Shown in pieces: positions 3,191 to 22,127 of a DNA stretch of 64,000 bases (the stretch's first letter is position 1; each line of letters starts with the position of its first letter). The notes beneath the pieces were generated by a model. That model saw only the letters and a program-made list of their open reading frames with translations. It searched no databases and was not told the DNA's origin. This stretch comes from Candidatus Methanoplasma porotermitis (GTDB lineage: Archaea > Thermoplasmatota > Thermoplasmata > Methanomassiliicoccales > Methanomethylophilaceae): the NCBI GenBank assembly GCA_031290095.1, contig JAITOF010000045.1, positions 5,538 to 69,537 on the forward strand, written 5' to 3'. The translations under genes and the position numbers were made by a program.

Positions 3191-3259
3191 GGGGACACGT
3201 CGCTAACCGATTACAGTTAGCATCCCTGTTTTATACGCCCATATTGTAAAACATGTCTC

Positions 3260-3724
3260 ATGAGAAGAAAAACATACCTCATGAGAATAAACAGGAACAG
3301 GAAAGGCGGCATAGAAGGGTTGCCGTTGCAACTGATGATCGTCATAATAATCGCCACGATGGGCACTGCGATACTCGTCGGATGGATGGGCAACATCGAC
3401 ACTCCAAAGAGCATCGGCATGGTGGAAGTCGTCTCTGACGACATAGTTCTCGACGGCAACTCGACGGACAGCGCCGTGGTGGACATATTTGTGGCGGACC
3501 AGAACGGGAACCCTCTAAAAGGCGCCACCGTGGTCCTTTCAGGCCTGGGCATAACCGCTTCCGACGGGAAGACGGCGCATACCGTCACAGATCAGCAGGG
3601 GTACGCTCACTTCGACGGCCTCCGCGTGACGCTGAGAGGTTCTGAGATAGGATTCATAACGGTGAACGTCTCGATGTCGGAATACGGAGAGAACAACAAC
3701 ACAAGGGTGGCGGTGATAGCATGA
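3260..3724 (+). CDS. archaeal type IV pilin-like protein (class III signal peptide) with a CarboxypepD_reg/Ig-like domain
   Basis: The N-terminus ...MRINRNRKG-GIEGLPLQLMIVIIIATMGTAILVGW has a charged stretch, KG, then a hydrophobic helix. An alternative start at 3281 gives a short leader. The later segment VADQNGNPLKGATVVLSG...TDQQGYAHFDGL is typical of carboxypeptidase-regulatory-like beta-sandwich domains. Confidence 0.55.
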   Translation: MRRKTYLMRINRNRKGGIEGLPLQLMIVIIIATMGTAILVGWMGNIDTPKSIGMVEVVSDDIVLDGNSTDSAVVDIFVADQNGNPLKGATVVLSGLGITASDGKTAHTVTDQQGYAHFDGLRVTLRGSEIGFITVNVSMSEYGENNNTRVAVIA

Positions 3725-4161
3725 TAATGGACAGGAAGGGGATGGTTGGCTTCCCCGTGAGGCTTGCCGTCACCTTCCTCATCCTAGCCTTGGCGGTCCC
3801 GTCGCTGATGGCGATGATGGGCGGCATGCAAGAGGAAGCGGGAGAATCCGCGGCCGCGTCAGAGGCGGACAAGATCTCCTCTGCTGTTTCCCGAGCATAC
3901 TATTCCGGCGTCGGGGGGACTTGCACTGTGGGCGTGTCGATATCTTCGGGATACAGGCTGGTGATCGGAGGCGACGGCGCCGATGCGTACTGCATCTCCG
4001 TGCTGTGCGGCGACGAGCCCAAAGAGAAGATATACCTTCAGCGCCCGCCGGTGCGCATAATGAACTCCGAACCTCTGGAGATTTCGGGGGAAAGGACGCT
4101 TCTGTGCACGTGTGCCGCCGTCGAAGGAGCTTACGGCGTCGAAGTGAGCGTGATATCATGA
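3721..4161 (+). CDS. archaeal type IV pilin-like protein (class III signal peptide)
   Basis: The N-terminus is MIMDRKG-MVGFPVRLAVTFLILALAVPSLMA. The start overlaps the stop of the previous gene (ATGA). Confidence 0.55.
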   Translation: MIMDRKGMVGFPVRLAVTFLILALAVPSLMAMMGGMQEEAGESAAASEADKISSAVSRAYYSGVGGTCTVGVSISSGYRLVIGGDGADAYCISVLCGDEPKEKIYLQRPPVRIMNSEPLEISGERTLLCTCAAVEGAYGVEVSVIS

Positions 4162-4164
4162 TGT

Positions 4165-4560
4165 ATGCGGCGTCAGGTGGGCGGCATGATTGAGTTCACC
4201 ATGTCGAGAATTGCGGTTTTTGCCTGCGGAGTGATACTGCTTGCGGCAATCGTCGTTCCGATATCCGATGTGTACGATGGGAGGAAAGACGCGGATCTTA
4301 CGGAGGCGGCAGATAAAATAGCGTTCATGATCGACGCCTTTTGGGATTCGGAAGCGGACGTCATGACGCTGAGGGGATGGGATATTTTGCCTTTTTCCGA
4401 CATGTCCGTCGAAATCAGCGGCCATGTGCTGACTGTGAACAAGGGCGGCAAGGAGTATCGTTCGCTGATAGAACATCCGGCAGACAGCATATCGATCTCG
4501 TACAACGACACGATAGGCCTGAAAAGGAGTGACGGGCGCCTTGCGTTGGCGAGTCAGTGA
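4165..4560 (+). CDS. pilin-like small secreted or membrane protein
   Basis: The N-terminus is MRRQVGG-MIEFTMSRIAVFACGVILLAAIVV. It starts 4 nt after the previous stop and is the third gene of the same operon. Confidence 0.45.
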   Translation: MRRQVGGMIEFTMSRIAVFACGVILLAAIVVPISDVYDGRKDADLTEAADKIAFMIDAFWDSEADVMTLRGWDILPFSDMSVEISGHVLTVNKGGKEYRSLIEHPADSISISYNDTIGLKRSDGRLALASQ

Positions 4561-5783
4561 CTCCCGAATGTTCCGGCGACTTTTATGAGGGCCTTTGCGA
4601 ACCGGTCGACGTCTTCGTCGTTGTTGTATAGGTAGACCGACGCCCTGGCGCTTCCGTCGATTCCTCTGGATTCATAGAACGGATGGGCGCAATGCATTCC
4701 CGACCGTATCATTATCCTGTCGATCTTGTCAAGCATCATGGCCACGTCGTGAGAGCCTAGCATGTCGATGTTGAACGAGAACGCCCCGGTCCTCCTGTCA
4801 GGGCGCGACGGTCCGACGATTCTCAACCCCTCTATCCCGGAAACCCCGTCCATAAGCCTGCGCATGAGCCGCCTGTCCTGGGCGGCGACGTTCTCCATTC
4901 CTATGCCGTCCAGATACTCGATGGCGGCTTTGGCGCCCACGATGCCGGAATAATTCTGAAGCCCTGATTCGAACCTCTCCGGGACGGGAGCCATGTTAGC
5001 ATGATCGTATGTGGCGAGGCCTACGGTTCCTCCGCCGTACGTCAGGGGCCTCAGCCCTTCCAAAGCCTCCGAGGTCCCGTACATGACCCCCATGCCGGAG
5101 GGGCCTAGCATCTTGTGCATGGACACGGCATAGAAGTCTGCGCCGATACGGCCAAGGTCTACCTTCATATGGGGGGCCGCCTGCGACCCGTCGATCAGGA
5201 CCTTGGCCCCACGGTCGTGCGCTATCTCGGCGACGTCCTTCACAGGGATGAGGCATCCAGTGACGTTGCTCGCGTGATGGACCGAGACGAGTTTTACGTC
5301 TCCGTTCATGCAACTTTTGAAATTCTCTATGTTGAACTCCCCGTCTGCACCGGATTCAGAGTGCCTTTTTTTGATTCCCACAGCGTCGGCGAGCACCAGC
5401 CAAGGCACGTGGTTGGAATTGTGCTCCGTGTCCGTGGTGACGACCGCGTCGTCTTTCTTCAGACCGAACCCGAATGCGACGGTGTTTATCGACTCTGTCG
5501 TGTTCTTGGTGAATATGTAGCAGTTCGGGTCCTTGGTGCCGAAGAATGATGCCAGCTTCTCGCGGGTCTCGTCGGTCTCAAGGGATATCCTTGCGGACAT
5601 CTCGTGGACGCTACGGCCGCCACAGCCTGGATACTCCTCGTAATACTCGGTCATCGCGCGGATCACGCTGTCAGGACGCAGGGACTGGCATGCGCTGTCC
5701 AAGTAGACGCCTCTGCCCTTCCTCATAGTAGGGAAATCGCCACGAACCTTTGACGTGTCCATCAACCCTCGATAGGCTACCAT
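4554..5783 (-). CDS. sufS: cysteine desulfurase (class V aminotransferase, SufS-like)
   Basis: PLP-lysine motif SMHKMLGPSGMGVMYG and catalytic-Cys loop IRSGMHCAHPF. About 409 aa. Confidence 0.85.
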   Translation of the reverse strand: MVAYRGLMDTSKVRGDFPTMRKGRGVYLDSACQSLRPDSVIRAMTEYYEEYPGCGGRSVHEMSARISLETDETREKLASFFGTKDPNCYIFTKNTTESINTVAFGFGLKKDDAVVTTDTEHNSNHVPWLVLADAVGIKKRHSESGADGEFNIENFKSCMNGDVKLVSVHHASNVTGCLIPVKDVAEIAHDRGAKVLIDGSQAAPHMKVDLGRIGADFYAVSMHKMLGPSGMGVMYGTSEALEGLRPLTYGGGTVGLATYDHANMAPVPERFESGLQNYSGIVGAKAAIEYLDGIGMENVAAQDRRLMRRLMDGVSGIEGLRIVGPSRPDRRTGAFSFNIDMLGSHDVAMMLDKIDRIMIRSGMHCAHPFYESRGIDGSARASVYLYNNDEDVDRFAKALIKVAGTFGSH

Positions 5784-11997: not shown

Positions 11998-12843
11998 TCA
12001 CCGGGACGCCGATTCTCGGGCGATGCATGCCTTTATGATCCTGCATGCCGCCGGGTCTCCGGGGCTCTTCTCGTTTATGGCGCCGGCGACGATTTTGGCG
12101 TCTTTGTATCTTCCTTTCTCGATCATGCAGAATGCCAACGTCTCCATCGCGCCCCTGTGCCCGTTGTCGATCTTGACAGACTTCGCGGCATATGAGGCGG
12201 CCATGGCGGTCTTTCCCTGCACCCAAAGGACATAAGCCGCAAGGGCATTGTGGTCCGCTGACTCTTTGTCGGATTTCAGAAGCGCGTCCACATAGCTCTT
12301 CGCTGCTTTCACGCAATCGGCGGAAAGGAGCGCCGCGCAGTAGCATTTGCAGGCGTCGTATGTCGTCGGCTCGTCAGACAGGAGGCTCTTTGCACATTCT
12401 ACGGCCTCCTCATGCAGGCCCAGCGCAGAAAGGGCCTCTGTCCTTACGACGCGGTCTGACGCAGAAGGATCCGATATGAGGTCCAGAGCGTTCAAGGCCT
12501 CGCCATACCTTCCTGCGGACAGGAGGAGCGAGGCTTCGAGGCCCTTGACGCCCTCGACACCCGACGATCGGATGACGCTCAACGCCTCGGAAACATGACC
12601 CATCCCTCCTAGGCCAGCGGCGATGTCGGCCGCATGTTCGCCGACAGGGGCGCGCGTGATCTTCGAAACGGCGGCCGCTACGCCGACGGCGTACCCCGTC
12701 GTTGCGGACAACGATGCGCACGTAAGAAGGGTGAACGGGTCGTCGGAGCATGATATGAGCTCGGATATCATCGCAAACGCCTCTTCGGTCCTTCCCCCGA
12801 TTATGTTGGCCTTGATTCCTTTGAGGGCGGCGTCGTTTTCCAT
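11998..12843 (-). CDS. TPR/helical-repeat protein
   Basis: 281 aa of Ala/Leu-rich helical repeats (YGEALNALD, HEEAVECAKSLL, YKDAKIVAGAINEKSPGDP). Confidence 0.5.
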   Translation of the reverse strand: MENDAALKGIKANIIGGRTEEAFAMISELISCSDDPFTLLTCASLSATTGYAVGVAAAVSKITRAPVGEHAADIAAGLGGMGHVSEALSVIRSSGVEGVKGLEASLLLSAGRYGEALNALDLISDPSASDRVVRTEALSALGLHEEAVECAKSLLSDEPTTYDACKCYCAALLSADCVKAAKSYVDALLKSDKESADHNALAAYVLWVQGKTAMAASYAAKSVKIDNGHRGAMETLAFCMIEKGRYKDAKIVAGAINEKSPGDPAACRIIKACIARESASR

Positions 12844-12949
12844 CGTCCGCCCCCTATCCGGTCATAAGAAATAAAGATTGAGTGTGCTTAGCAATCTCGA
12901 GGCGAAGGACTCTCGCATGTTATTATACATTCAAAGAGATACGCGGGAC

Positions 12950-13993
12950 ATGAGGCTTGTTGCGTTCTCGGTGTATGGGCTGTTCAACGAATTCGACTAT
13001 GAAATCAACCTCACCGACGGTCCGATGACATTCATCCACTCTCAGAACGGATACGGCAAATCTACAGTCATGAGGCTTATCCACTGGGCGCTGTCCGGCG
13101 ACCGGGAGAAGATAGGAGAGGTGTTGTTCAGCCGCATGGATCTGACGTTCAGCGACGGCAGCTGCATGATTTTGGAGAACAGCAACGGCGAAGTCGTCGT
13201 TCAGATGCAAAAGAACGACCTGGAGGAGCAGGTAACTGACAACGAGATGAAGATCGTGATGCGCTCCATGTACATCTCCCCTGAGAGGTATGTCGTGCCG
13301 TCCGAGTCATGCGGGCACTACGACCCTGCGCTGTACGTGTACCACAAAGAGTTGGCTGAATCGATGAGGGACGCCGTGGAGGACGGCGACTTGCCCGCGG
13401 CAGACGTCAGGTCCGTCTCTTTGTTGTCGGACGAAGAGCTCGAGTTCAGATGCAAGGACCTGAAGGCGAAGCTCGACTTCATGAAGCAGGCAGGCATAGA
13501 GCCTGACATGCCGTCCGGCTACAGGTTTCCCCCCGCGAGGTACGAGATAATGGAATGGCGCAAGGATTACGATAGTCTTGCGGCGTCCGTCGAAAGCTAT
13601 GTCAATAAATATTTCACATTGGCCGAATCGCTCGTGGTGTATCTTGACATAATCAACGGCATGTTCATCAACAAAGAGATATACATCAACGACAAGAACG
13701 GTCTGAACGTCAGGATGACCAATGGCACAGCTTTGCCCATCAACAGGCTGTCTTCGGGAGAGGAGCAGCTGTTGATCATATTCTACCAGATCCTCTTTCA
13801 GACCGCGGCCGGCTCGCTTGTGATAATCGACGAGCCTGAGATCTCCCTTCACGTGTCGTGGCAACAGAGGATAGGCTCCATCCTCGTCGACATCGCCAGG
13901 CTCAGGGACCTTCAGATGCTGGTCGCTACGCACTCTCCCCAAATAATACACGACAGATGGGATGCGGCCGTGGAGCTCAAGGCTGGACAATGA
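12950..13993 (+). CDS. ABC/SMC-like AAA15/21-type ATPase, AriA-like (PARIS-type defence ATPase candidate)
   Basis: The N-terminus MRLVAFSVYGLFNEFDYEINL is followed by Walker A SQNGYGKST. A helical insertion spans roughly residues 100-260. Then come the ABC signature LSSGEEQLL, Walker B LVIIDEPEISLH and H-loop VATHSP. The stop overlaps the ATG of the next gene (ATGA). Confidence 0.7.
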   Translation: MRLVAFSVYGLFNEFDYEINLTDGPMTFIHSQNGYGKSTVMRLIHWALSGDREKIGEVLFSRMDLTFSDGSCMILENSNGEVVVQMQKNDLEEQVTDNEMKIVMRSMYISPERYVVPSESCGHYDPALYVYHKELAESMRDAVEDGDLPAADVRSVSLLSDEELEFRCKDLKAKLDFMKQAGIEPDMPSGYRFPPARYEIMEWRKDYDSLAASVESYVNKYFTLAESLVVYLDIINGMFINKEIYINDKNGLNVRMTNGTALPINRLSSGEEQLLIIFYQILFQTAAGSLVIIDEPEISLHVSWQQRIGSILVDIARLRDLQMLVATHSPQIIHDRWDAAVELKAGQ

Positions 13994-14847
13994 TAGACAA
14001 GCTGACTGCCGAAGACATAGCCAACAGCATATCCATGCTGAGATCGTCGCACAGCGGGCCCGTGATGATCGTGGAAGGCGTCACAGACTGCCGCCTGTAC
14101 GGGAAGTTCATCGACAGGAACGAGGTGGTTATCGTTCCCGCCCACTCCCGCGACAACGTCAGAAAGGCCCTTGCAGAGGCGTGGGGGCATAGGGGGGACC
14201 GCAGGGTCATAGGGATAGTCGATGCCGACCTCGACATCCTTTTCGGAAAGGCCAACCGCCCTCCGCTGTTCTCTACGGACAAACGCGACCTTGAGGCCAT
14301 GATGCTGTCCACGAGGGCGTTCGAGGATGTTCTTTCGGAATACGCCGACGGCGACAGGCTGGCGTCTTTTGAAAAACGGCATGGCGACGTCAGAGACGCG
14401 GTGTCAGGCGCCTGCGTGATGCTGGGCCTGATGATGTTCGTCTCCATCCGAGACAACATGGGACTCAGCTTCAAGGATATCGACCATTCTGCCTTCATAG
14501 ACGAGAGAAGCCTGAGGGCGGACGTCCGCAAGATGACGGACGAAGTCTTCGCCGGGTCGATGAACGCCAACAGAGGGAAGCGGGACGTCATCGACGCCGT
14601 CACGGCGGAAGCCGAGGCCATCGACGACCCTTGGACGGCGGTCCGTGGGCATGATGCGGTAGCGGTGCTTAAGATCGGGCTGCTGTCGGCGTTCGGCGCG
14701 TACAACTCCAAAGGTCTGGAGGAGGGAAGGCTGGCAGGATCGCTCAGGCTCGCGTTCGGCATGGGTTATTTCACTGAGACGCGTCTGTACGCGGACATAT
14801 TGGAATGGGGCAACAAGAACAATATGGTGTTCTGGATTAGTCGATGA
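13990..14847 (+). CDS. DUF4435/Toprim-like protein, AriB-like (PARIS-type effector candidate)
   Basis: Toprim-type acidic motifs VMIVEGVTDCRLYGKF (ExG..D) and VIGIVDADLD (DxD). It is translationally coupled to the upstream ATPase. The first 44 residues of the ORF-track version are an out-of-context extension. Confidence 0.7.
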   Translation: MIDKLTAEDIANSISMLRSSHSGPVMIVEGVTDCRLYGKFIDRNEVVIVPAHSRDNVRKALAEAWGHRGDRRVIGIVDADLDILFGKANRPPLFSTDKRDLEAMMLSTRAFEDVLSEYADGDRLASFEKRHGDVRDAVSGACVMLGLMMFVSIRDNMGLSFKDIDHSAFIDERSLRADVRKMTDEVFAGSMNANRGKRDVIDAVTAEAEAIDDPWTAVRGHDAVAVLKIGLLSAFGAYNSKGLEEGRLAGSLRLAFGMGYFTETRLYADILEWGNKNNMVFWISR

Positions 14848-15073
14848 CCAGATCCTCCTTCTTTGTGCCTTCCGACGTTTCGATGAGCTTCTGCACCCGG
14901 CGGTCCGCCTCGTCCAGTATCTTCTTGCAACGATCCCTCAGCACTGTCGCCCTCTCATAGACCTCAAGTCCTTTGTCAAGGTCCAGATTCCCGCTTTCCA
15001 GCTCCTTCACGAGCTGTTCAAGCGTTTTCAGGCTCTCCTCGAACGTCATGCTCTCCGTGTCTTCATTCGCCAT
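14837..15073 (-). CDS. xseB: exodeoxyribonuclease VII small subunit
   Basis: FEESLKTLEQLVKELESGNLDLDKGLEVYERA is the typical XseB helix-hairpin. It lies directly downstream of xseA and overlaps it. Confidence 0.75.
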   Translation of the reverse strand: MANEDTESMTFEESLKTLEQLVKELESGNLDLDKGLEVYERATVLRDRCKKILDEADRRVQKLIETSEGTKKEDLVID

Positions 15074-16331
15074 GTATCTCAACCTTCTTGATCTCTGCGT
15101 CGGCACGCCCGTCCCTCATCCGTATCGCTATTATCGATCCTGGCCCGAGCGACGCCGCCGAAGTCACCGCCCTTCCCTCGCCGTCCGCGACAAAACAGTA
15201 CCCCCTGTCGAGAACGTTCAACGGGTTCAATGCGTTCAAACGCTCCGAGAATCCTGTTATCGCCCTGTTTCTGTCGCCTATGAGGCGTGCGCCGCCGTGA
15301 TTTATGCCGTACGACGCCCTGATCAGCCTATCCGTCCTGCTCCTGGATATCTCCTTCAATCCGGAATCCATCCTGTTGGATAGGTCGTCGATACGCATGG
15401 AAAGCATGGATACTCTATCCTGGGCCCGCCTGGGGGCGATTTTGGAGTCCACAGAGGCATAGCGGCCCTTCATCCTGTCTACGATAGCCGACAGAGACCT
15501 TCTCATGCGCGCGGCATCGACGTCCAACTGTTTGTTTATCTCCTTTCTGTCGCGGAGCGCCATCTCCGCCGCCGCTGTCGGCGTGGGGGCCCTGGCATCG
15601 GCTACCATGTCCGATATCGTATTGTCGGTCTCATGTCCGACCGCTGATATTATCGGTATCTTGGATGCCGCGATCGCCCTCGCGACTATCTCCTCGTTGA
15701 ACGCCCATAGGTCCTCGATGGAGCCTCCGCCCCTTCCGATGATTATGACGTCCACGCCGTGCCGGTTAAGAGACTCGATGCCTGCTACGATCGACTCTGC
15801 GGCACCGTCCCCCTGCACCTGCGCCGGAACAAGAAGTATGTCCGCTGGAAACCTGCGCCCTGACGTGGTTATTATATCGTGTATCACCGCGCCCGTGGGA
15901 GACGTTACCACCCCTATGACGAGGGGGTATTGCGGAAGCGGCCTCTTGCAGGAGCTTTCGAACAGCCCCTCGGCCTTCAACTTCTTTTTAAGCTCTTCCA
16001 ACGCCAGATAAAGTTCTCCAACCCCCGATTTGCGCATGTTGGCAACGACGAACTGGTATGATCCGCGTTCCACGTACAGGTCGACGTTTCCGAATGCCGC
16101 TACCTTCATGCTGTCCATAGGTTCGAAGTCCATCCTTCCACGGGAATTTTTAAACAGGACGCCTCGAATCTCGCTGCCGTTGTCTTTGAGTGTGAAATAA
16201 TAGTGTCCCGAAGCGTACTTTTTCAGATTCGAGATCTCTCCAGTCACCCATAAGTCGCTGACCGCCGTGTTCCCGTTCAATATCGAGCGTACGCGGGTGT
16301 TCAGCTGTGTGACCGTGATCGTCTCTGCCAT
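15063..16331 (-). CDS. xseA: exodeoxyribonuclease VII large subunit
   Basis: N-terminal OB fold (VTQLNTRVRSIL...VTGEISNLKKYASGHYYFTLKD), catalytic core IIIGRGGGSIEDLWAFNEE...SAVGHETD and a coiled-coil tail. Confidence 0.85.
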   Translation of the reverse strand: MAETITVTQLNTRVRSILNGNTAVSDLWVTGEISNLKKYASGHYYFTLKDNGSEIRGVLFKNSRGRMDFEPMDSMKVAAFGNVDLYVERGSYQFVVANMRKSGVGELYLALEELKKKLKAEGLFESSCKRPLPQYPLVIGVVTSPTGAVIHDIITTSGRRFPADILLVPAQVQGDGAAESIVAGIESLNRHGVDVIIIGRGGGSIEDLWAFNEEIVARAIAASKIPIISAVGHETDNTISDMVADARAPTPTAAAEMALRDRKEINKQLDVDAARMRRSLSAIVDRMKGRYASVDSKIAPRRAQDRVSMLSMRIDDLSNRMDSGLKEISRSRTDRLIRASYGINHGGARLIGDRNRAITGFSERLNALNPLNVLDRGYCFVADGEGRAVTSAASLGPGSIIAIRMRDGRADAEIKKVEIHGE

Positions 16332-16370
16332 CGGAGGATGTATGCGCATGAAGGATTAATCTGTTTGCCG

Positions 16371-18602
16371 TCAGCCCCGAGCCTGTATCGTCACGCGACC
16401 GTCAATCTCTCTTGCGGGGATCTCGTACTTCTCCTTACTGACGATCGGGACCCTCCAGACGCCTCCCCCTATGCGGTACGTCACTGCCACGGACCTCCCT
16501 CCGCTGTCTATGGAGAACACGTACGCCCTGTGTTTATGCGCCTTTTTGGCACCGACTATGATTATCCCCTCGCCAATCGTCGTCTTCACGACGTCCAACG
16601 GCTTCCTTAAAACAAATCTGTATAGCGACGTTATAACTGCGGCCGCCGCCGCGCAAGCGATTGCGACTGCCAGCCAGACAAGACCGGGGCCTGATGCCTT
16701 CACGACGGTCACCGACACGCTGAATATCGTGAAAGCGCCGTCATCGCCCGTGACGGATACCGACGCCGTGTACGTTCCAGGGCTGAGGCCTCTGACAGGT
16801 GTGACAGTGAACGTGCATTCGTCGGCAGAGGAGGGCAAGTTCCTTTCCGACATCGGGCCGATGACGAACATCCCCGCATCGCGTCCGCCTATGGCGGCTC
16901 TGAGCCCATTTACCGCTCTGTCGCCCGCATTGCGTATGGTGACCTCGAGCGAGTCCTTGCTTTCGTAGCCTTCGACGAGGCTGTTGTATCTGTAAAGCTC
17001 CTCCCCGATGCTGTCGTCTATCAGCGCGCTTCTGTACGCGCTTACGAAGAACGAGACCCTGAAGGAGGATTCGGTCCCGTTTGTGCCTGTGACTGTGACG
17101 GTGGACTCGTATGTGCCGGGAGACAGGCCATCGGCCGGCCTTAGCGTGAACGACTGCTTTCCGCCCGGGCCGAACGACTGCCCCGACAGGGCGCCTGCCA
17201 CGAACCACGATGGGCCGTCTCCTGAAATGCTCACTTTGAGATGTGATATGGCATGGTTCCCCACATTGTAGACGACGACGTTCACGGCGGCCTGCTGGCC
17301 GTATTCGGCCATCGCCATAGGGAACACGTATGGGTCGCGCGGAACGTCGGCGATTATCTCGTATCTCTCTTCATAAGACAGCACATATTCGCCGGATGGC
17401 GTTGAGATGACCGCATATTCCAAGTCAGCAGTGTAACGCATGCATTTGGCCGTGTCTTCGTAGGAACTGCCGTCGATGGCCCTTGCGACTACAGCTCCGT
17501 CCAGAATGTCCGAAGTCACTGATGCGATGTTAATCTTCGCACCCGATTCGAGGCCGCCTGCGACGGCAATGACGGCCGACCTTCCAAGAGCAATGCCGTT
17601 GTCTGCGACAGAGATGCCGACCCTAGGGGCCCCGGATGCGTTCAGATATGCTCCCGACTCCACGTATATCCCGTCTCCATCGAAAGCGGAGATGTTGCAA
17701 CTTACGACGCATTCCCCGCTCAGGCTGAGAATGCTTCGGATTCCGACCAGTATTCCGCCCGCGATGCCGCTGGATTCGTTGTTCGAGACTTTGACGTTGC
17801 CGCTCATCCTCAGTTCCGAGGTGCCGTCGCCCGAAGTCAGGCGTATGCCTCCTGCGGTCTCGGCAATATTGTCCGTGACGAAGCTGTCTCCGGACATCTC
17901 GAAAAGAGAGTCTAAAACATAAACTCCTCCCCCCTCCGCCGCGCGGTTGCCGGAGACGCCGGCGCTGCCGCTCATTTGAAGGCTTCCTGACTCAACGTAC
18001 ACGCCGCCTCCGTTCCTGCCTGCTGCGTTGCCGCGTATCGATCCTGAAGTGAAATTTATCGACACGTCGCCTGTTGCGGCGACTGCGCCTCCGTCCAGGC
18101 CGGCCGTGTTGCCTTCGATGGTTCCACCGGTGATGCTCAGCGCAGAACACGCCGTCGAACCGTCCAGAAACACCGCCCCGCCCGAGCCGTCATGTGCGAG
18201 GACGTTGCCTGTAAGGATACTGTGCTCCCCGAGTATCAGCGTCCCTCCAAACACGACTACCATGCTTTGGACCGCTCCGCCCAGGACGGAGCCGTCGATA
18301 GTGACGCCGGCTAAAGACAGAGACGCCCCTTCAGAAACTATGAACATCGGCCCGACCATGCCAGGGCCCCTGACGATACGGTGCCCGTTTCCTTCGACGG
18401 ACGTGTCGGATGTTATATCGACTGTGCCATCAAGCGCCAGATCCTCGGAGAGGGAGACTTCGCCTTCAAAAAGCACAGCGGTCCCGCTGTCCGCCTCTGT
18501 GTTGCAAGACGCGGAGGCGACCAGCGTAACCATGACTGACACAGCCACGGCTGCCACGGTATAAAGCGTTCCGTATCCCTTTTTCAAGGGCATCCCATCC
18601 AT
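16371..18602 (-). CDS. adhesin-like surface protein: signal peptide, PMP-type beta-helix repeats, two Ig-like domains, C-terminal TM anchor plus cytoplasmic tail
   Basis: N-terminal hydrophobic leader. Repeated GGAV/GGGVY...GN motifs (DGGAVAATGDVS, NGGGVYVESGSLQMSG, EGGGVYVLDS) resemble polymorphic-membrane-protein repeats. Two related modules end in GLSPGTYxxxVxVTG. The TM segment LVWLAVAIACAAAAAVITSLY is followed by about 95 further residues. Confidence 0.7.
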   Translation of the reverse strand: MDGMPLKKGYGTLYTVAAVAVSVMVTLVASASCNTEADSGTAVLFEGEVSLSEDLALDGTVDITSDTSVEGNGHRIVRGPGMVGPMFIVSEGASLSLAGVTIDGSVLGGAVQSMVVVFGGTLILGEHSILTGNVLAHDGSGGAVFLDGSTACSALSITGGTIEGNTAGLDGGAVAATGDVSINFTSGSIRGNAAGRNGGGVYVESGSLQMSGSAGVSGNRAAEGGGVYVLDSLFEMSGDSFVTDNIAETAGGIRLTSGDGTSELRMSGNVKVSNNESSGIAGGILVGIRSILSLSGECVVSCNISAFDGDGIYVESGAYLNASGAPRVGISVADNGIALGRSAVIAVAGGLESGAKINIASVTSDILDGAVVARAIDGSSYEDTAKCMRYTADLEYAVISTPSGEYVLSYEERYEIIADVPRDPYVFPMAMAEYGQQAAVNVVVYNVGNHAISHLKVSISGDGPSWFVAGALSGQSFGPGGKQSFTLRPADGLSPGTYESTVTVTGTNGTESSFRVSFFVSAYRSALIDDSIGEELYRYNSLVEGYESKDSLEVTIRNAGDRAVNGLRAAIGGRDAGMFVIGPMSERNLPSSADECTFTVTPVRGLSPGTYTASVSVTGDDGAFTIFSVSVTVVKASGPGLVWLAVAIACAAAAAVITSLYRFVLRKPLDVVKTTIGEGIIIVGAKKAHKHRAYVFSIDSGGRSVAVTYRIGGGVWRVPIVSKEKYEIPAREIDGRVTIQARG

Positions 18603-19206
18603 GTCCTGTATGTCGACACAATCTTAAAAACTATTTGTTCACCTGTTCTGACGGCCCTAGCGCCCCGGTCCAAGAAGACGATGGAGCACGCCGAACTGCT
18701 AGACATGCGCCTCGCGTTCCTGCCGCCGTGCTCCTCTCGCCTGAACCATGGTATGAAGAGGCTCTTGTCCAAAACACGGGCATCGACCGCCATGTACTCC
18801 GTTCGGCGACGGGTTCCTCGCCGAGGCCGCCAAGGGTCCGTACTGCAGATATTGGACATGGATTTTTAATGGATAATTCATCAATTTAGTTAAGTAAATG
18901 ACTATAAAAACCATCTGTCTGTCCTGATCCATACTGTCCGCATGCCCTCGTACCACGCATCCTGCGTCCGTCGGCACCGATGCGCCTCGAGCGACGGCCT
19001 CCGATGGGAGCGGGGGAGGCGTGACGTACCACAGACGACGTTATTTCTACTGAATTTTAGGTAGATAAGCCATCATCAAATAACCTGGCGCGATTCATAA
19101 AATCCAACCGCATGCACAGATAGCGGCAGTGTTGCGCAGGAACGCGACGGCACGGCAAAATGTGCTGCGGGGGGCGACCGATCATGACAGCACATTTGAA
19201 AAAGGA

Positions 19207-19216
19207 GGGGGGGGGG
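19207..19216 (+). repeat. G10 homopolymer tract in the leader of the LRR surface gene
   Basis: Read directly (aaaggaGGGGGGGGGGccag). It lies about 100 nt upstream of the ATG at 19320. Confidence 0.85.
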
Positions 19217-19319
19217 CCAGCCTTCGCCTAGCTCTATGTTCCGTGTTCTCGGTGGACACGGCAGAATCGTTATCCGAAAGCTTAACACGCGCCTTCCACT
19301 CCCATAGGGGCGTGAGTGA

Positions 19320-21730
19320 ATGAAACCGCGTTCTTATGCGGCGATGCTGGCCGTTGTCGCGGTACTCGCAGCGGGCGCGTTCCTCGCCTCCGACCAGGGC
19401 GCGCCTTTGTCGGACGCCGACGCGCCCTACGACAGCGGAAACATCCATTGGAACCTGACGGAAGGAGTGCTCACTCTGACCCTGAACGGCGCCGGAGGCA
19501 CGTACATGGAGGACTATGGGTACGGCGACGCGCCGTGGTACGACTGCCGTCTCTACATCGCGGAGGTCGTCGTCGGCCGCGGGATAACGTCCATAGGCGA
19601 CGGGGCGTTCTACGACTGTCGCGCCCTCTCCTCCGTAGTCGTCCCAGGAAGCGTGGCGTCCATAGGCGACGGGGCGTTCGCCAGCTGCTACAACCTCTCC
19701 TCCGTAGTCATCTCCGACGGCGTGAGAGCCATAGGCGACAGTGCGTTCTTCGACTGTCACGCCCTCTCCTCTGTCGTCATCCCCGGAAGCGTGACCTCCA
19801 TAGGCGACGGGGCGTTCGTCGACTGCAACGCCCTCTCCTCTGTCGTCATCTCCGACGGCGTGGTGTCCATAGGCGGCAGTGCGTTCGCCAGCTGCTACAA
19901 CCTCTCCTCCGTCGTCATCCCCGGAAGCGTGAAGACTATAGGGGACTGTGCGTTCACATCCTGCTATAGCCTATCCTCCGTCGTCATCTCAAAGGGCGTG
20001 ACGTCCATAGGCGACGGGGCGTTCAACTACTGCGAAACGTTGCGCAACATCCTGTTCGAGGGCTCTACGCCTCCGAAGCTCGGATATGGTTCTTTCGACT
20101 TGGCAGGCGAAAGCGGTTTTGCAACGGAGGCATACGTGCGGTCGTCGATATGGACGTCGCAAGAGGTCCTCGAAACCGTCTTCACGCGCGAAGTCATAGG
20201 CGACTCCGTCGTAAAATACGGAGGGGGCGTAGGCGACCCTCCAAACTCGCCTTCAGGTCCCGCAGGCGCGGACTGGAAGTATGAATGGTCCTCGGGAACG
20301 CTGACGTTCTTTGGTACGACCTTTCCCGACCGGGGCGAATGGGCCTCAATCCGGCCATGTGTGCGGCATGTGGTCATAGGAGAAGGCATAGATTCCATAG
20401 GCATCGCGGCGTTCTCCGGTGCTGCGCCCTCTCCTCCGTAGTCATCCCCGGAAGCGTGAAGACCATAGGCGGCGGGGCGTTCTCCATGTGTTACGCCCTC
20501 TCCTCCGTAGTCATCCCCGCCAGCGTGACGTACATAGGCGACAATGCGTTCCTCTTCTGCTACTCCCTGCGCTCGATCGTAATCCCCGCCAGCGTGACGT
20601 ACGTAGGCAACAATGCGTTCTACCGCTACTCCACCCTATCCTCAGTGACCATACTGGCGCCCGGCCTCGCCCTGCCTGCCACCGTGTTCAACGATGATTA
20701 CGCTCTCACAGCCATGTCTATCTACAACCCCGACGCCCCCGAATCAGGCACATTGTACATCGTGGCAGACGCCGCGAACCCCGGCGCGATAGTGGTCTAC
20801 TACGACGATAGCTTGGGCGGCGACGTCTACGCAAAGCAGTCGCCGTCGAAGGGGTCCCTGACCCTCTCAGGGTTCCCTGACATGGGTGCGGCGAGGATAG
20901 GCACGAAGACATGGATCGCTGACGTCTATGACCTAGCGGACCCCGCCGACTACGAGCAGATGGTCCTTGACGGCTACGCCCTGACGGCCCTGGACGGCGT
21001 GCCGTTCCCCACGTCGAAGCTCGGCGGCGCCAGGACCATCTACGCATCCTTTGGCTACTACTACGTCGTGTCCGCGTCGATCGCTAACGGCGAGATCGCG
21101 CCGTCTGGCGACGTCGGCGTGGTGGGCGGCGAGATCCGCGTGGCGGCGCACGGCGACGCGACGTTCGAGTTCGCCGCGAACCCCGGCTACGCCCTGCGGA
21201 GCGTCGAGATAGACGGCGACGGCGGCTCGCCCAAGGCTTTGGCCGCCCTCGCGACGGGTACGCACACGTTCCCCGGCGTGTTGGAAAGCCACACGATATC
21301 GGTGGAGACGGAACGCCTGGAGTTCGTCGTGACGGCATCGGCGGACTCGAACTCTACGATAGCCCCGGCAGGCTCCATGGGCGTCGCTAGAGGGGGGAGC
21401 GCCTCGTTCGCGTTCTCGGCGGGCGCGGGCTACGCCATAGCCGACGTGGTCGTGGACGGGGCGAGCGTCCCGTCCGCCGCCGCGTCCGGGTCGTACACGT
21501 TCGATAACGTGACCTCCAACCACACGATAAGCGTGACGTCCGCGCCGTCCGTCGGCAACCCCGACATTGGAGACGGCTCAGGCGACGGCGAAGGAGGGGC
21601 GGACAGCACCCCTTCTGGTACGACAGACATCCTGGCGATCGTCGTCGCGGCCATATGCATCGTTGCAGCATCGCTGTTGCTTCTGATCGCCCTTGCGCGA
21701 CATCGGTCTAAAGAATCGAAGTCGCCCTGA
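19320..21730 (+). pseudogene. BspA-type leucine-rich-repeat surface protein, interrupted by a single-nucleotide frameshift near 20415-20425
   Basis: Signal peptide MKPRSYAAMLAVVAVLAAGAFLA. There are many 23-aa repeats of the form IGDxAFxxCxxLSSVVIPxSVxS. ORF 19320..20441 ends ...IGIAAFSGAAPSPP*, while ORF 20285..21730 in another frame continues CCALSSVVIPGSVKTIGGGAF. Restoring one base gives AFSGCCALSSVVIPG, which matches the repeat consensus. C-terminal TM anchor ILAIVVAAICIVAASLLLLIAL. Confidence 0.7.
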
Positions 21731-22127
21731 AGCGCCTGTGTCAGACCGCCCCCGTCCCGCGAGGCCGAGCGTCCCAGAAACCTCTTCCCCAAACTGCTTC
21801 TCGACATTTTTGAGTTCTGCCCACGATTCCTCCGACCTTGCCTCCTTATGAGATTGGCACGCAGGCGACACGTTTTGAGGCCCTCGCACGTCCGAGCATG
21901 ACGGACTCCGGCACAGAACAGAGGAACCGCCACATGCTTCACAGGAGCCGTGTTTCTTGGCTCCGACCGCGTTCATGACGCGCTCTACGACGACATGTGC
22001 CGCATGGCACTGGCCCTTTGACAATCGCATATGTACGCTGCCGCGCCGGGCAAATTGAGAAGCATATTTCTTCACAAGGTACTGTTATATATGTCACATC
22101 GGATTATTGTTTGAAACGCAGGGAGGT

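Follow-up and report, generated by a model that had tools for sequence, protein, structure and literature searches.

A compact PARIS-type gene pair beside the exonuclease VII genes of Methanomassiliicoccales

The 64,000-nucleotide stretch of Candidatus Methanoplasma porotermitis analysed here (contig JAITOF010000045.1; the whole stretch is called the window, and positions are counted in it) carries two adjacent genes at 12950–14847 on the plus strand. Gene 1 encodes an ABC-type ATPase and gene 2 a DUF4435/Toprim protein. Sequence and predicted fold show the two proteins to be homologues of AriA and AriB, respectively the ATPase and the nuclease of the PARIS anti-phage system. The pair is old and vertically inherited. 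Its fixation beside xseBA, the genes of exonuclease VII, is supported by every Methanomassiliicoccales locus seen, which is short of proof for all genomes. Our favoured reading, in which we place a little better than even confidence, is that the pair forms a compact PARIS-family ('class 4 OLD-like') ATP-gated nuclease that has become fixed in the lineage and is still most probably immune.

Membership of the PARIS family

Gene 1 (12950–13993, plus strand) encodes 347 residues and was identified as a compact AriA-like ABC ATPase from the open reading frame (ORF) table, Pfam, PADLOC, the PDB and Foldseek. It matches the Pfam families AAA_15 (58.6 bits, cut-off 32.1) and AAA_21 (58.8 bits, cut-off 27), both at about 1e-15. 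The top PADLOC model is AriA at 1e-26, with GajA at 4.5e-11, and the best sequence match in the PDB is AriA (8ux9/8v45, 2.7e-17). The AlphaFold (AF2) model has a predicted local distance difference test score (pLDDT) of 90. When this model was compared with the PDB by Foldseek, the top 16 matches were all AriA chains (E from 4e-21 to 7e-15). Rad50 and PtuA come next, with E values of about 1e-13 or weaker.

The ATPase motifs of gene 1 are intact. Walker A (NGYGKST, residues 33–39) lies at 13046–13066 on the plus strand, as do all motifs given below. Its residues N33, G36, K37 and S38 are conserved in at least 96% of 51 orthologues, and N33, G34, G36 and K37 are invariant in the A3 alignment of gene 1 homologues. 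The ABC signature LSSGEEQ (residues 267–273, 13748–13768) has S268, G270 and E271 invariant. Walker B and the D-loop, LVIIDEPEISLH, span residues 290–301 (13817–13852); D294, E295, P296, E297, S299 and H301 are invariant among orthologues, and E295 aligns to the catalytic E393 of AriA in the alignment to 8ux9. The H-loop ATHSP (residues 326–330, 13925–13939) is conserved to at least 96% at A326, T327, H328 and P330.

Gene 2 (13990–14847, plus strand) encodes 285 residues and was identified as an AriB-like DUF4435/Toprim nuclease from Pfam, PADLOC, PHROG and Foldseek. DUF4435 is the only Pfam family matched (34.6 bits, cut-off 27), and AriB is the only PADLOC model (7e-13, residues 24–233). For the AF2 model of gene 2 (pLDDT 95), the only significant Foldseek matches in the PDB are AriB chains 8v46_D and 8ux9_A, over the full length, with E 3e-5, a template modelling (TM) score of about 0.5 and 14–15% identity. 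Among viral structures (BFVD), Foldseek found no significant match to the same model.

The translation of gene 2 contains the acidic motifs IVEGVTDCRLY (residues 27–37) and GIVDADLD (residues 75–82). The first holds the Toprim glutamate motif E29-G30-x-x-D33 (14074–14088), which is invariant in 44 family members, distant ones included. The spacing of E29 and D33 equals that of the Toprim residues E26 and D30 of AriB (PMC11464382); the correspondence of the residues follows from this spacing. The second holds the DxD motif D78-A-D80-L-D82 (14221–14235), with D78 and D80 invariant in the 44 sequences and D82 within the clade. A third acidic cluster, D97, D100 and E102 (14278–14295), is invariant in all 44. 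In these alignments, the catalytic residues of both the ATPase and the Toprim protein are conserved across 44–51 homologues.

The published detection rule for PARIS asks for an AAA_15 score of at least 32 bits or an AAA_21 score of at least 27 bits beside a DUF4435 score of at least 27 bits, in adjacent genes (PMC9122126). Genes 1 and 2 are adjacent and score above these thresholds. Gene 1 has the properties expected of AriA, namely an AAA_15/AAA_21-type ABC ATPase with Walker A, Walker B, signature and H-loop intact, and gene 2 those expected of AriB, a DUF4435 protein with a conserved acidic Toprim site. In PARIS of E. coli B185 (8UX9, 8V45-8V49), as in the pair, the ATPase gene comes first and the nuclease gene adjoins it and is coupled to it. 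Both systems also have an ABC ATPase of the AAA_15/21 type, Rad50-like in fold and with a coiled-coil, and a DUF4435 protein with Toprim acids (E-x3-D, DxD and further acids) and a helical C-terminal domain. E. coli PARIS provides the best sequence and structure matches overall, for gene 2 by fold.

An earlier sequence-only reading of this DNA had proposed a two-gene module of an ABC ATPase and a DUF4435/Toprim protein, resembling PARIS in the order AriA then AriB. ORFs, Pfam and PADLOC agree on the module, with AAA_15/AAA_21 and DUF4435 above their cut-offs, and the hidden Markov models, the PDB sequence search (for gene 1) and Foldseek bear out the likeness to PARIS. The motifs that it quoted for both genes were all found in the translations, and the ATPase is indeed compact. 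The archaeal context that it assumed is borne out by identical proteins on record from a Candidatus Methanoplasma sp. metagenome-assembled genome (MAG).

We also considered other ABC-ATPase/Toprim or SMC-type families for the pair, such as AbiL/RloAB, Old/Gabija, or RecF/RecN/SMC with RecR. The OLD nucleases (P2 Old in class 1, GajA in class 2) and AbiL/RloAB likewise combine an ABC ATPase with a Toprim nuclease, and the literature treats OLD, AbiL/RloAB and PARIS as one defence superfamily. Gene 1 also has weak Pfam matches to SMC_N and AAA_23, and PtuA, GajA and Rad50 appear lower in its match lists. However, AriA is ahead of all other ATPases by at least 8 orders of magnitude in the PDB sequence search and in Foldseek, and the OLD and AbiL models rank far below AriA. 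In Old and GajA, the ATPase and a Toprim_Old domain share one polypeptide, whereas the domains here are split over two proteins and gene 2 has no Toprim_Old match. AbiL and Rlo systems have RloB-type partners. The sequence-only reading had kept AbiL/RloAB as the close differential, which falls away: gene 2 shows no RloB/AbiLii-type match (PF13707 or DUF4276), is DUF4435/AriB only in Pfam and PADLOC, and has AriB as its sole full-length fold match.

RecF-RecR and Rad50-Mre11 also pair an ATPase with a nuclease or Toprim protein, Foldseek finds a Rad50-like fold in gene 1 (E about 1e-13), and the exonuclease VII neighbourhood recalls repair. Unlike these systems, gene 1 scores 27.9 bits for SMC_N, under the cut-off of 40, and gene 2 has no similarity to RecR or Mre11. 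The NCBIfam scan gave no model at or above its cut-off. The resemblance to Rad50 and RecF is one of functional analogy only, and we regard placement of the pair in any of these other families as very improbable.

Position and inheritance of the pair

The two genes meet at caATGAtag, where the ATG of gene 2 overlaps the TGA of gene 1. An overlap of 4, 8 or 11 nucleotides is found in 59 of 69 related loci. Gene 2 is thus predicted to be translationally coupled to gene 1 through the ATGA overlap, and the coupling appears conserved. Downstream, the pair converges on xseB, the small subunit gene of exonuclease VII (14837–15106, minus strand; Pfam Exonuc_VII_S, 4.5e-16), which is followed by xseA, the large subunit gene (15063–16349, minus strand; Exonuc_VII_L, 5.9e-92). 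Upstream, a gene for a TPR-repeat protein (11998–12843, minus strand; TPR_19, 6.5e-12) is divergent from gene 1. The 3' ends of gene 2 and xseB overlap by 11 nucleotides, with stops at 14845–14847 (plus strand) and 14837–14839 (minus strand). This overlap and the ATGA junction had both been described before and were read directly. Tight convergence of gene 2 and xseB is general among 73 related loci, and the length of the overlap is variable. An overlap of exactly 11 nucleotides occurs in only 12 of the 73, and it was rejected as a conserved trait.

The same arrangement recurs in related genomes. A metagenome locus scan with the clade alignment recovered 80 loci; the counts refer to loci read with enough flank, and no sequence seen is labelled Methanomassiliicoccus sensu stricto. 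The ATPase gene adjoins the DUF4435 gene on its upstream side in 65 of 65 loci. The xseB/xseA genes are convergent downstream in 62 of 63; at the sole locus without xseB, L138, a gene for a 432-residue ATPase is inserted and the contig then ends. The TPR gene is present upstream in 43 of 47 metagenome loci and also in L002, L088, L172 and L173. A scan of species genomes was anchored on XseA, and its matches were mostly bacterial, with about a dozen archaeal loci among the matches listed. Among these listed matches the pair is present at 8 of 8 informative Methanomassiliicoccales loci, and it is absent from all of the roughly 68 bacterial XseA loci and from Methanolobus. Over all informative loci reached through XseA, it is present at 12 of 12. 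Loci L172 and L173 were picked through XseA because neither contig was among the hits of gene 1 or gene 2.

The homologues of gene 2 form two sets. The first comprises about 75 clusters with 39–100% identity, all of about 285 residues; its named members are Methanoplasma, Methanomethylophilaceae or Methanomassiliicoccaceae. The second comprises about 17 distant sequences with 29–37% identity. Candidatus Methanoplasma termitum has the order TrkA-TrkH-TPR, ATPase (347 residues)-DUF4435 (285 residues), xseB-xseA. A Methanomethylophilaceae genome (L003) has other upstream genes and the same four-gene core, and the ATPase-DUF4435/xseB-xseA core is also present in L087, L088, L172 and L173. Relatives that share the full TPR/ATPase/DUF4435/xseB/xseA layout, Candidatus M. 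termitum and Methanomethylophilaceae MAGs among them, have orthologues 40–55% identical to those of the window. For isolate ISO4-H5 and for Methanomethylophilus MAGs, proteins at least 90% identical to orthologues of the pair are known by cluster membership only, their loci not having been read. For the sequence-only reading, universal conservation as core genes of the order would have spoken against the defence pair that it proposed, and this is largely what the loci show. Conservation at the locus does hold wherever a locus is informative; universality across the order extends no further than the loci seen.

The two genes have diverged together with their neighbour. In identity matrices from 51 distinct loci, gene 1 and gene 2 are correlated with r = 0.88 in a Mantel comparison (p ≤ 0.001), and the correlation with XseA is r = 0.80 for gene 1 and r = 0.83 for gene 2 (p ≤ 0.001). 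Mean pairwise identity is 0.50–0.51 for the pair and 0.56 for XseA. The clade linked to xseAB is monophyletic in a neighbour-joining tree.

The sequence-only reading had taken the genes for a defence pair that was inserted at the junction of the TPR gene with xseAB, and a mobile PARIS cassette that arrived there recently would agree with the family homology to PARIS. It would also agree with the phage-borne relatives, since gene 1 matches phage family PHROG 7507 and gene 2 matches PHROG 20954 over its full length (5e-18), and with the slightly lower GC content of gene 1 (0.537 vs 0.567 for the window). However, the GC content at third codon positions (GC3) of the pair, 0.76–0.77, is at the level of its neighbours. 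No integrase, repeat or tRNA features flank the pair in the window, and the scan of viral contigs found no encoded relative of the pair. Recent horizontal acquisition is rejected because GC3 matches the neighbours and synteny is kept; the 40–55% identical orthologues in the same layout and the co-divergence with XseA also stand against it. The evidence thus does not support an inserted defence pair, and we consider a recent insertion very unlikely.

Departures from E. coli PARIS and function

The closest pairs outside the clade are those of Methanococcoides (L085), of two loci of cyanobacterial type (L086 and L089), and of L170 and L171. They resemble the window pair in gene order, overlap and catalytic residues, and their DUF4435 partners of 274–295 residues are 31–37% identical. 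Unlike gene 1, their ATPases have 443–452 residues and are collinear with E. coli AriA, and they lie at unrelated loci, never beside xseAB. One further pair, in L174 (JADZEA010000147.1, 1–6892, a bacterial-looking contig), has a 341-residue ATPase and a 283-residue DUF4435 protein with 30–31% identity. This ATPase is compact and collinear with gene 1, so the compact form without the insert IS1 is not unique to the archaeal clade. Unlike the window pair, the L174 pair lies away from xseAB, lacks the GYRFPP apex motif described below, and does not group with the archaeal clade in the tree. It is located directly 3' of a gene for a 1737-residue kinase/TPR/GAF/sigma-54-activator protein.

In E. 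coli AriA, IS1 (residues 122–180) forms three helices near the ATP sites together with a radial-pore loop, and it has been proposed to recognise triggers; IS2 (residues 242–289) enables the hexamer, a trimer of dimers (PMC11464382). AriA has 464 residues with IS1, whereas gene 1 has 347 and appears to lack IS1 and its radial-pore loop. IS1 was mapped through a collinear relative because a search of phage records with an AriA fragment found only distant ATPases. The relative used is the 451-residue ATPase of Methanococcoides, which lines up with E. coli AriA along its length. In the MAFFT alignment, gene 1 lacks a 60-residue block (residues 124–183 of the Methanococcoides ATPase) and some smaller pieces. 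The gap falls between residues 104 and 105 of gene 1 (13259–13264, plus strand), where an insert of about 60 residues is absent, and in the model of gene 1 no insert of three helices precedes the Q-loop region. In an exhaustive search, only about 11 representatives were compact and collinear with gene 1. About 290 others at E ≤ 1e-30 have mostly 400–490 residues and match gene 1 in two stretches. On the alignment, gene 1 is best described as an AriA without IS1.

Other parts of the E. coli assembly are also altered. In the IS2 region, 35 of 48 positions have aligned counterparts in gene 1, and 12 residues are missing at its start, by alignment only. Where AriA has its basic central-pore loop, the aligned segment of gene 1 is acidic. 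E. coli PARIS forms an AriA6:AriB3 propeller that keeps AriB sequestered over the ATP sites, and the exact interface residues differ in the pair. D401 and E404 of AriA, which make salt bridges to R28 and R31 of AriB in E. coli (PMC11464382), correspond to S303 and Q306 of gene 1, and the two arginines correspond to V31 and C34 of gene 2. At the apex of the coiled-coil, gene 1 has a clade-specific motif, KDLKAKLDFxKxAGxEPxMPxGYRFPPxR (residues 169–199, 13454–13546, plus strand). It covers the end of helix 161–179 and the apex loop in the model. Its residues L171, A173, G182, P188, F193, P194 and P195 are at least 96% conserved in the 51 orthologues. The motif is not kept in the relatives with long ATPases, nor in L174.

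If the pair works as PARIS does in E. coli, two copies of the ABC ATPase, paired head to tail, would bind the Toprim protein and hold it inactive. Recognition of a signal would, in an ATP-dependent manner, set the Toprim protein free. The freed nuclease might then dimerise and cut nucleic acid, and growth would be arrested. E. coli PARIS is anti-phage and is triggered by viral anti-restriction proteins, upon which the released AriB cleaves tRNA. The target of the E. coli nuclease is tRNA-Lys. With neither IS1 nor the basic pore loops, and with an acidic segment instead, the signal is probably not an Ocr-like DNA mimic bound as in E. coli. The nature of the signal is uncertain given the distribution of the pair and the missing sensor insert.

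Several observations weigh against a retained role in immunity, or against a close equivalence to PARIS. Defence systems are not typically fixed at a single locus across an order. PARIS is found in 5.2% of genomes (PMC9122126), often on phages and satellites (PMC11464382); it is patchy, on satellites, phages and hotspots, while the pair is chromosomally fixed and vertical in an archaeal order. The insert proposed to sense triggers appears, by alignment, to be absent from gene 1. This mapping rests on the MAFFT alignment with flanking anchors rather than on a superposition of residues. The strongly conserved clade-specific apex motif suggests a constant partner and not an arms race. The salt bridges of the E. 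coli complex do not seem to be conserved in the aligned residues. Finally, the link of gene 2 to the AriB structure is made by the predicted fold alone; in PDB sequence searches AriB was not reached by gene 2, by a 44-sequence profile or by the Methanococcoides homologue.

These points raise the question of whether the pair is a PARIS-derived module domesticated for nucleic-acid maintenance, possibly with exonuclease VII, a reading that we regard as possible and clearly less probable than the immune one. In a DNA form of it, the ATPase would sense a DNA structure or lesion, the Toprim protein would nick or cut, and exonuclease VII would resect the single-stranded end. In an RNA form, the pair would be an RNase under ATP control that takes part in RNA processing or in the stress response. 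The linkage to xseBA noted above (62 of 63 metagenome loci and 12 of 12 informative XseA-anchored loci) survives different upstream neighbours in L003, and the pair diverges with XseA at a similar rate. The loss of IS1, the invariant motif at the coiled-coil apex and an ATPase fold that is also like Rad50 fit such a role. AddAB-like genes lie a few kilobases away in several relatives, and no defence island surrounds the pair, whose flanks are housekeeping genes.

However, the pair and xseBA are convergent and hence not co-transcribed. The whole stretch between TrkA and XseA keeps its gene order across these small genomes, and adjacency may reflect a low rate of rearrangement; the TPR gene is linked nearly as well. 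The linkage to xseBA is therefore suggestive and is no proof of a functional link. The absence of the pair at the listed bacterial XseA loci and in Methanolobus, and the outside relatives that never lie beside xseAB, also argue against a partnership with exonuclease VII, and every characterised member of the family is an immune system. The fuller scenario, in which the ancestor of Methanomassiliicoccales captured a PARIS module once, which then lost IS1 and was domesticated with exonuclease VII for DNA repair or nucleic-acid quality control, is slightly less probable still.

A selfish addiction module, in which the ATPase neutralises a toxic nuclease in the manner of a toxin-antitoxin system without benefit to the host, also has some features in its favour. 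The PDB deposits AriA as 'AriA antitoxin', released AriB is toxic (PMC11464382), and the tight translational coupling is conserved. On the other hand, deletion of either gene in E. coli is non-toxic, which excludes toxin-antitoxin logic there (PMC9122126). Addiction would not keep both genes from being deleted together during the time that divergence to about 40% identity takes. Decay of the active sites would be expected in some lineages, whereas every catalytic residue is kept, and the pair stays at one locus. We consider this explanation improbable. A retained immune role, by abortive infection, is narrowly the single most likely function.

Surroundings and significance

The start of gene 1 was placed at the ATG at 12950, which is codon 25 of a longer ORF beginning with TTG at 12878. 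The orthologues have 343–349 residues and all start from the same methionine. The TTG at 12878 was accordingly ruled out, and 12950 was taken as the start because the orthologues share this methionine and a TATA-box-like sequence, TTATTATA (12920–12927, plus strand), lies about 23 nucleotides upstream of the ATG. If this putative archaeal promoter is used, it would yield a leaderless mRNA for gene 1. By Pfam, the neighbours of the pair are TrkA, TrkH, the TPR protein, XseB and XseA. The TPR protein evolves faster than the ATPase (about 40% vs about 55% identity). Its gene is a conserved neighbour, which may be a third partner or a mere syntenic gene. Small genes of defence or toxin-antitoxin type lie close to the pair in some relatives. 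In L087, a HEPN and nucleotidyltransferase pair and an SBF transporter are located between the TPR and ATPase genes (3220–4871), which indicates that this junction tolerates insertions.

Several further features of the relatives were observed. A cluster of archaeal type, xseA-xseB/DUF4435-ATPase, with 47–54% identity to the window, is found in L009 (CAVHQB010000005.1, 5001–8479), labelled 'Lachnospiraceae bacterium'. It is probably a Methanomassiliicoccales contig mis-binned in a bacterial MAG. A further small gene of defence or toxin-antitoxin type, with a SocA_Panacea domain, lies about 4 kb downstream of the pair in L003 (12633–13409). The AddAB-like genes encode a PDDEXK_1 protein of about 890 residues and a UvrD-type helicase-nuclease, and they are 3–5 kb from xseA in several relatives (L001/L002, 14400–16858; L088, 13609–17044; L173, 1–3370). 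They are absent at that position in the window. In these relatives the AddAB-like genes, xseAB and the ATPase/Toprim pair make up a loose neighbourhood of bacterial-type genes for DNA-end processing.

On the 3' side of xseA, the window region 16371–21730 looks like a variable surface-protein insertion. It encodes a 743-residue surface-type protein with a weak Rib domain and overlapping BspA-type LRR_5 ORFs (19320–20441 and 20285–21730), possibly one frameshifted gene. A GC peak of 0.652 lies at 21001–22000. At this position the relatives have 4HBT, small ORFs and the AddAB-like genes. The rest of the 64-kb window is of housekeeping character and encodes SRP54, adenylosuccinate lyase, ribonucleotide reductase, an MMPL transporter, a U32 peptidase, and DUF7714 and DUF7121 proteins. 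No tRNA genes, and no Rfam families at the gathering threshold, were found in the whole window.

The PARIS family itself is already known. A literature search found nothing specific on PARIS in this clade or in archaea, and vertical fixation at one locus on the scale of an order, the loss of IS1 and the clade-specific apex motif were not found described. Defence systems are usually gained and lost fast, in variable islands. Here a PARIS-type pair has held its place next to xseBA through a divergence of its proteins to about 40% identity, with their catalytic residues intact. It is thus a test case for whether abortive-infection systems can become a stable, lineage-wide 'core' immunity, and for whether they can be recruited to cellular roles. 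Since the pair satisfies the published rule, automated tools such as DefenseFinder and PADLOC are likely to annotate PARIS in these genomes, a label that may mislead surveys of archaeal immunity. The hosts are methanogens of human, ruminant and termite guts, whose virus–host biology is of applied interest. If domestication proves true, a defence system would have turned into a housekeeping gene and become part of the genomic backbone.

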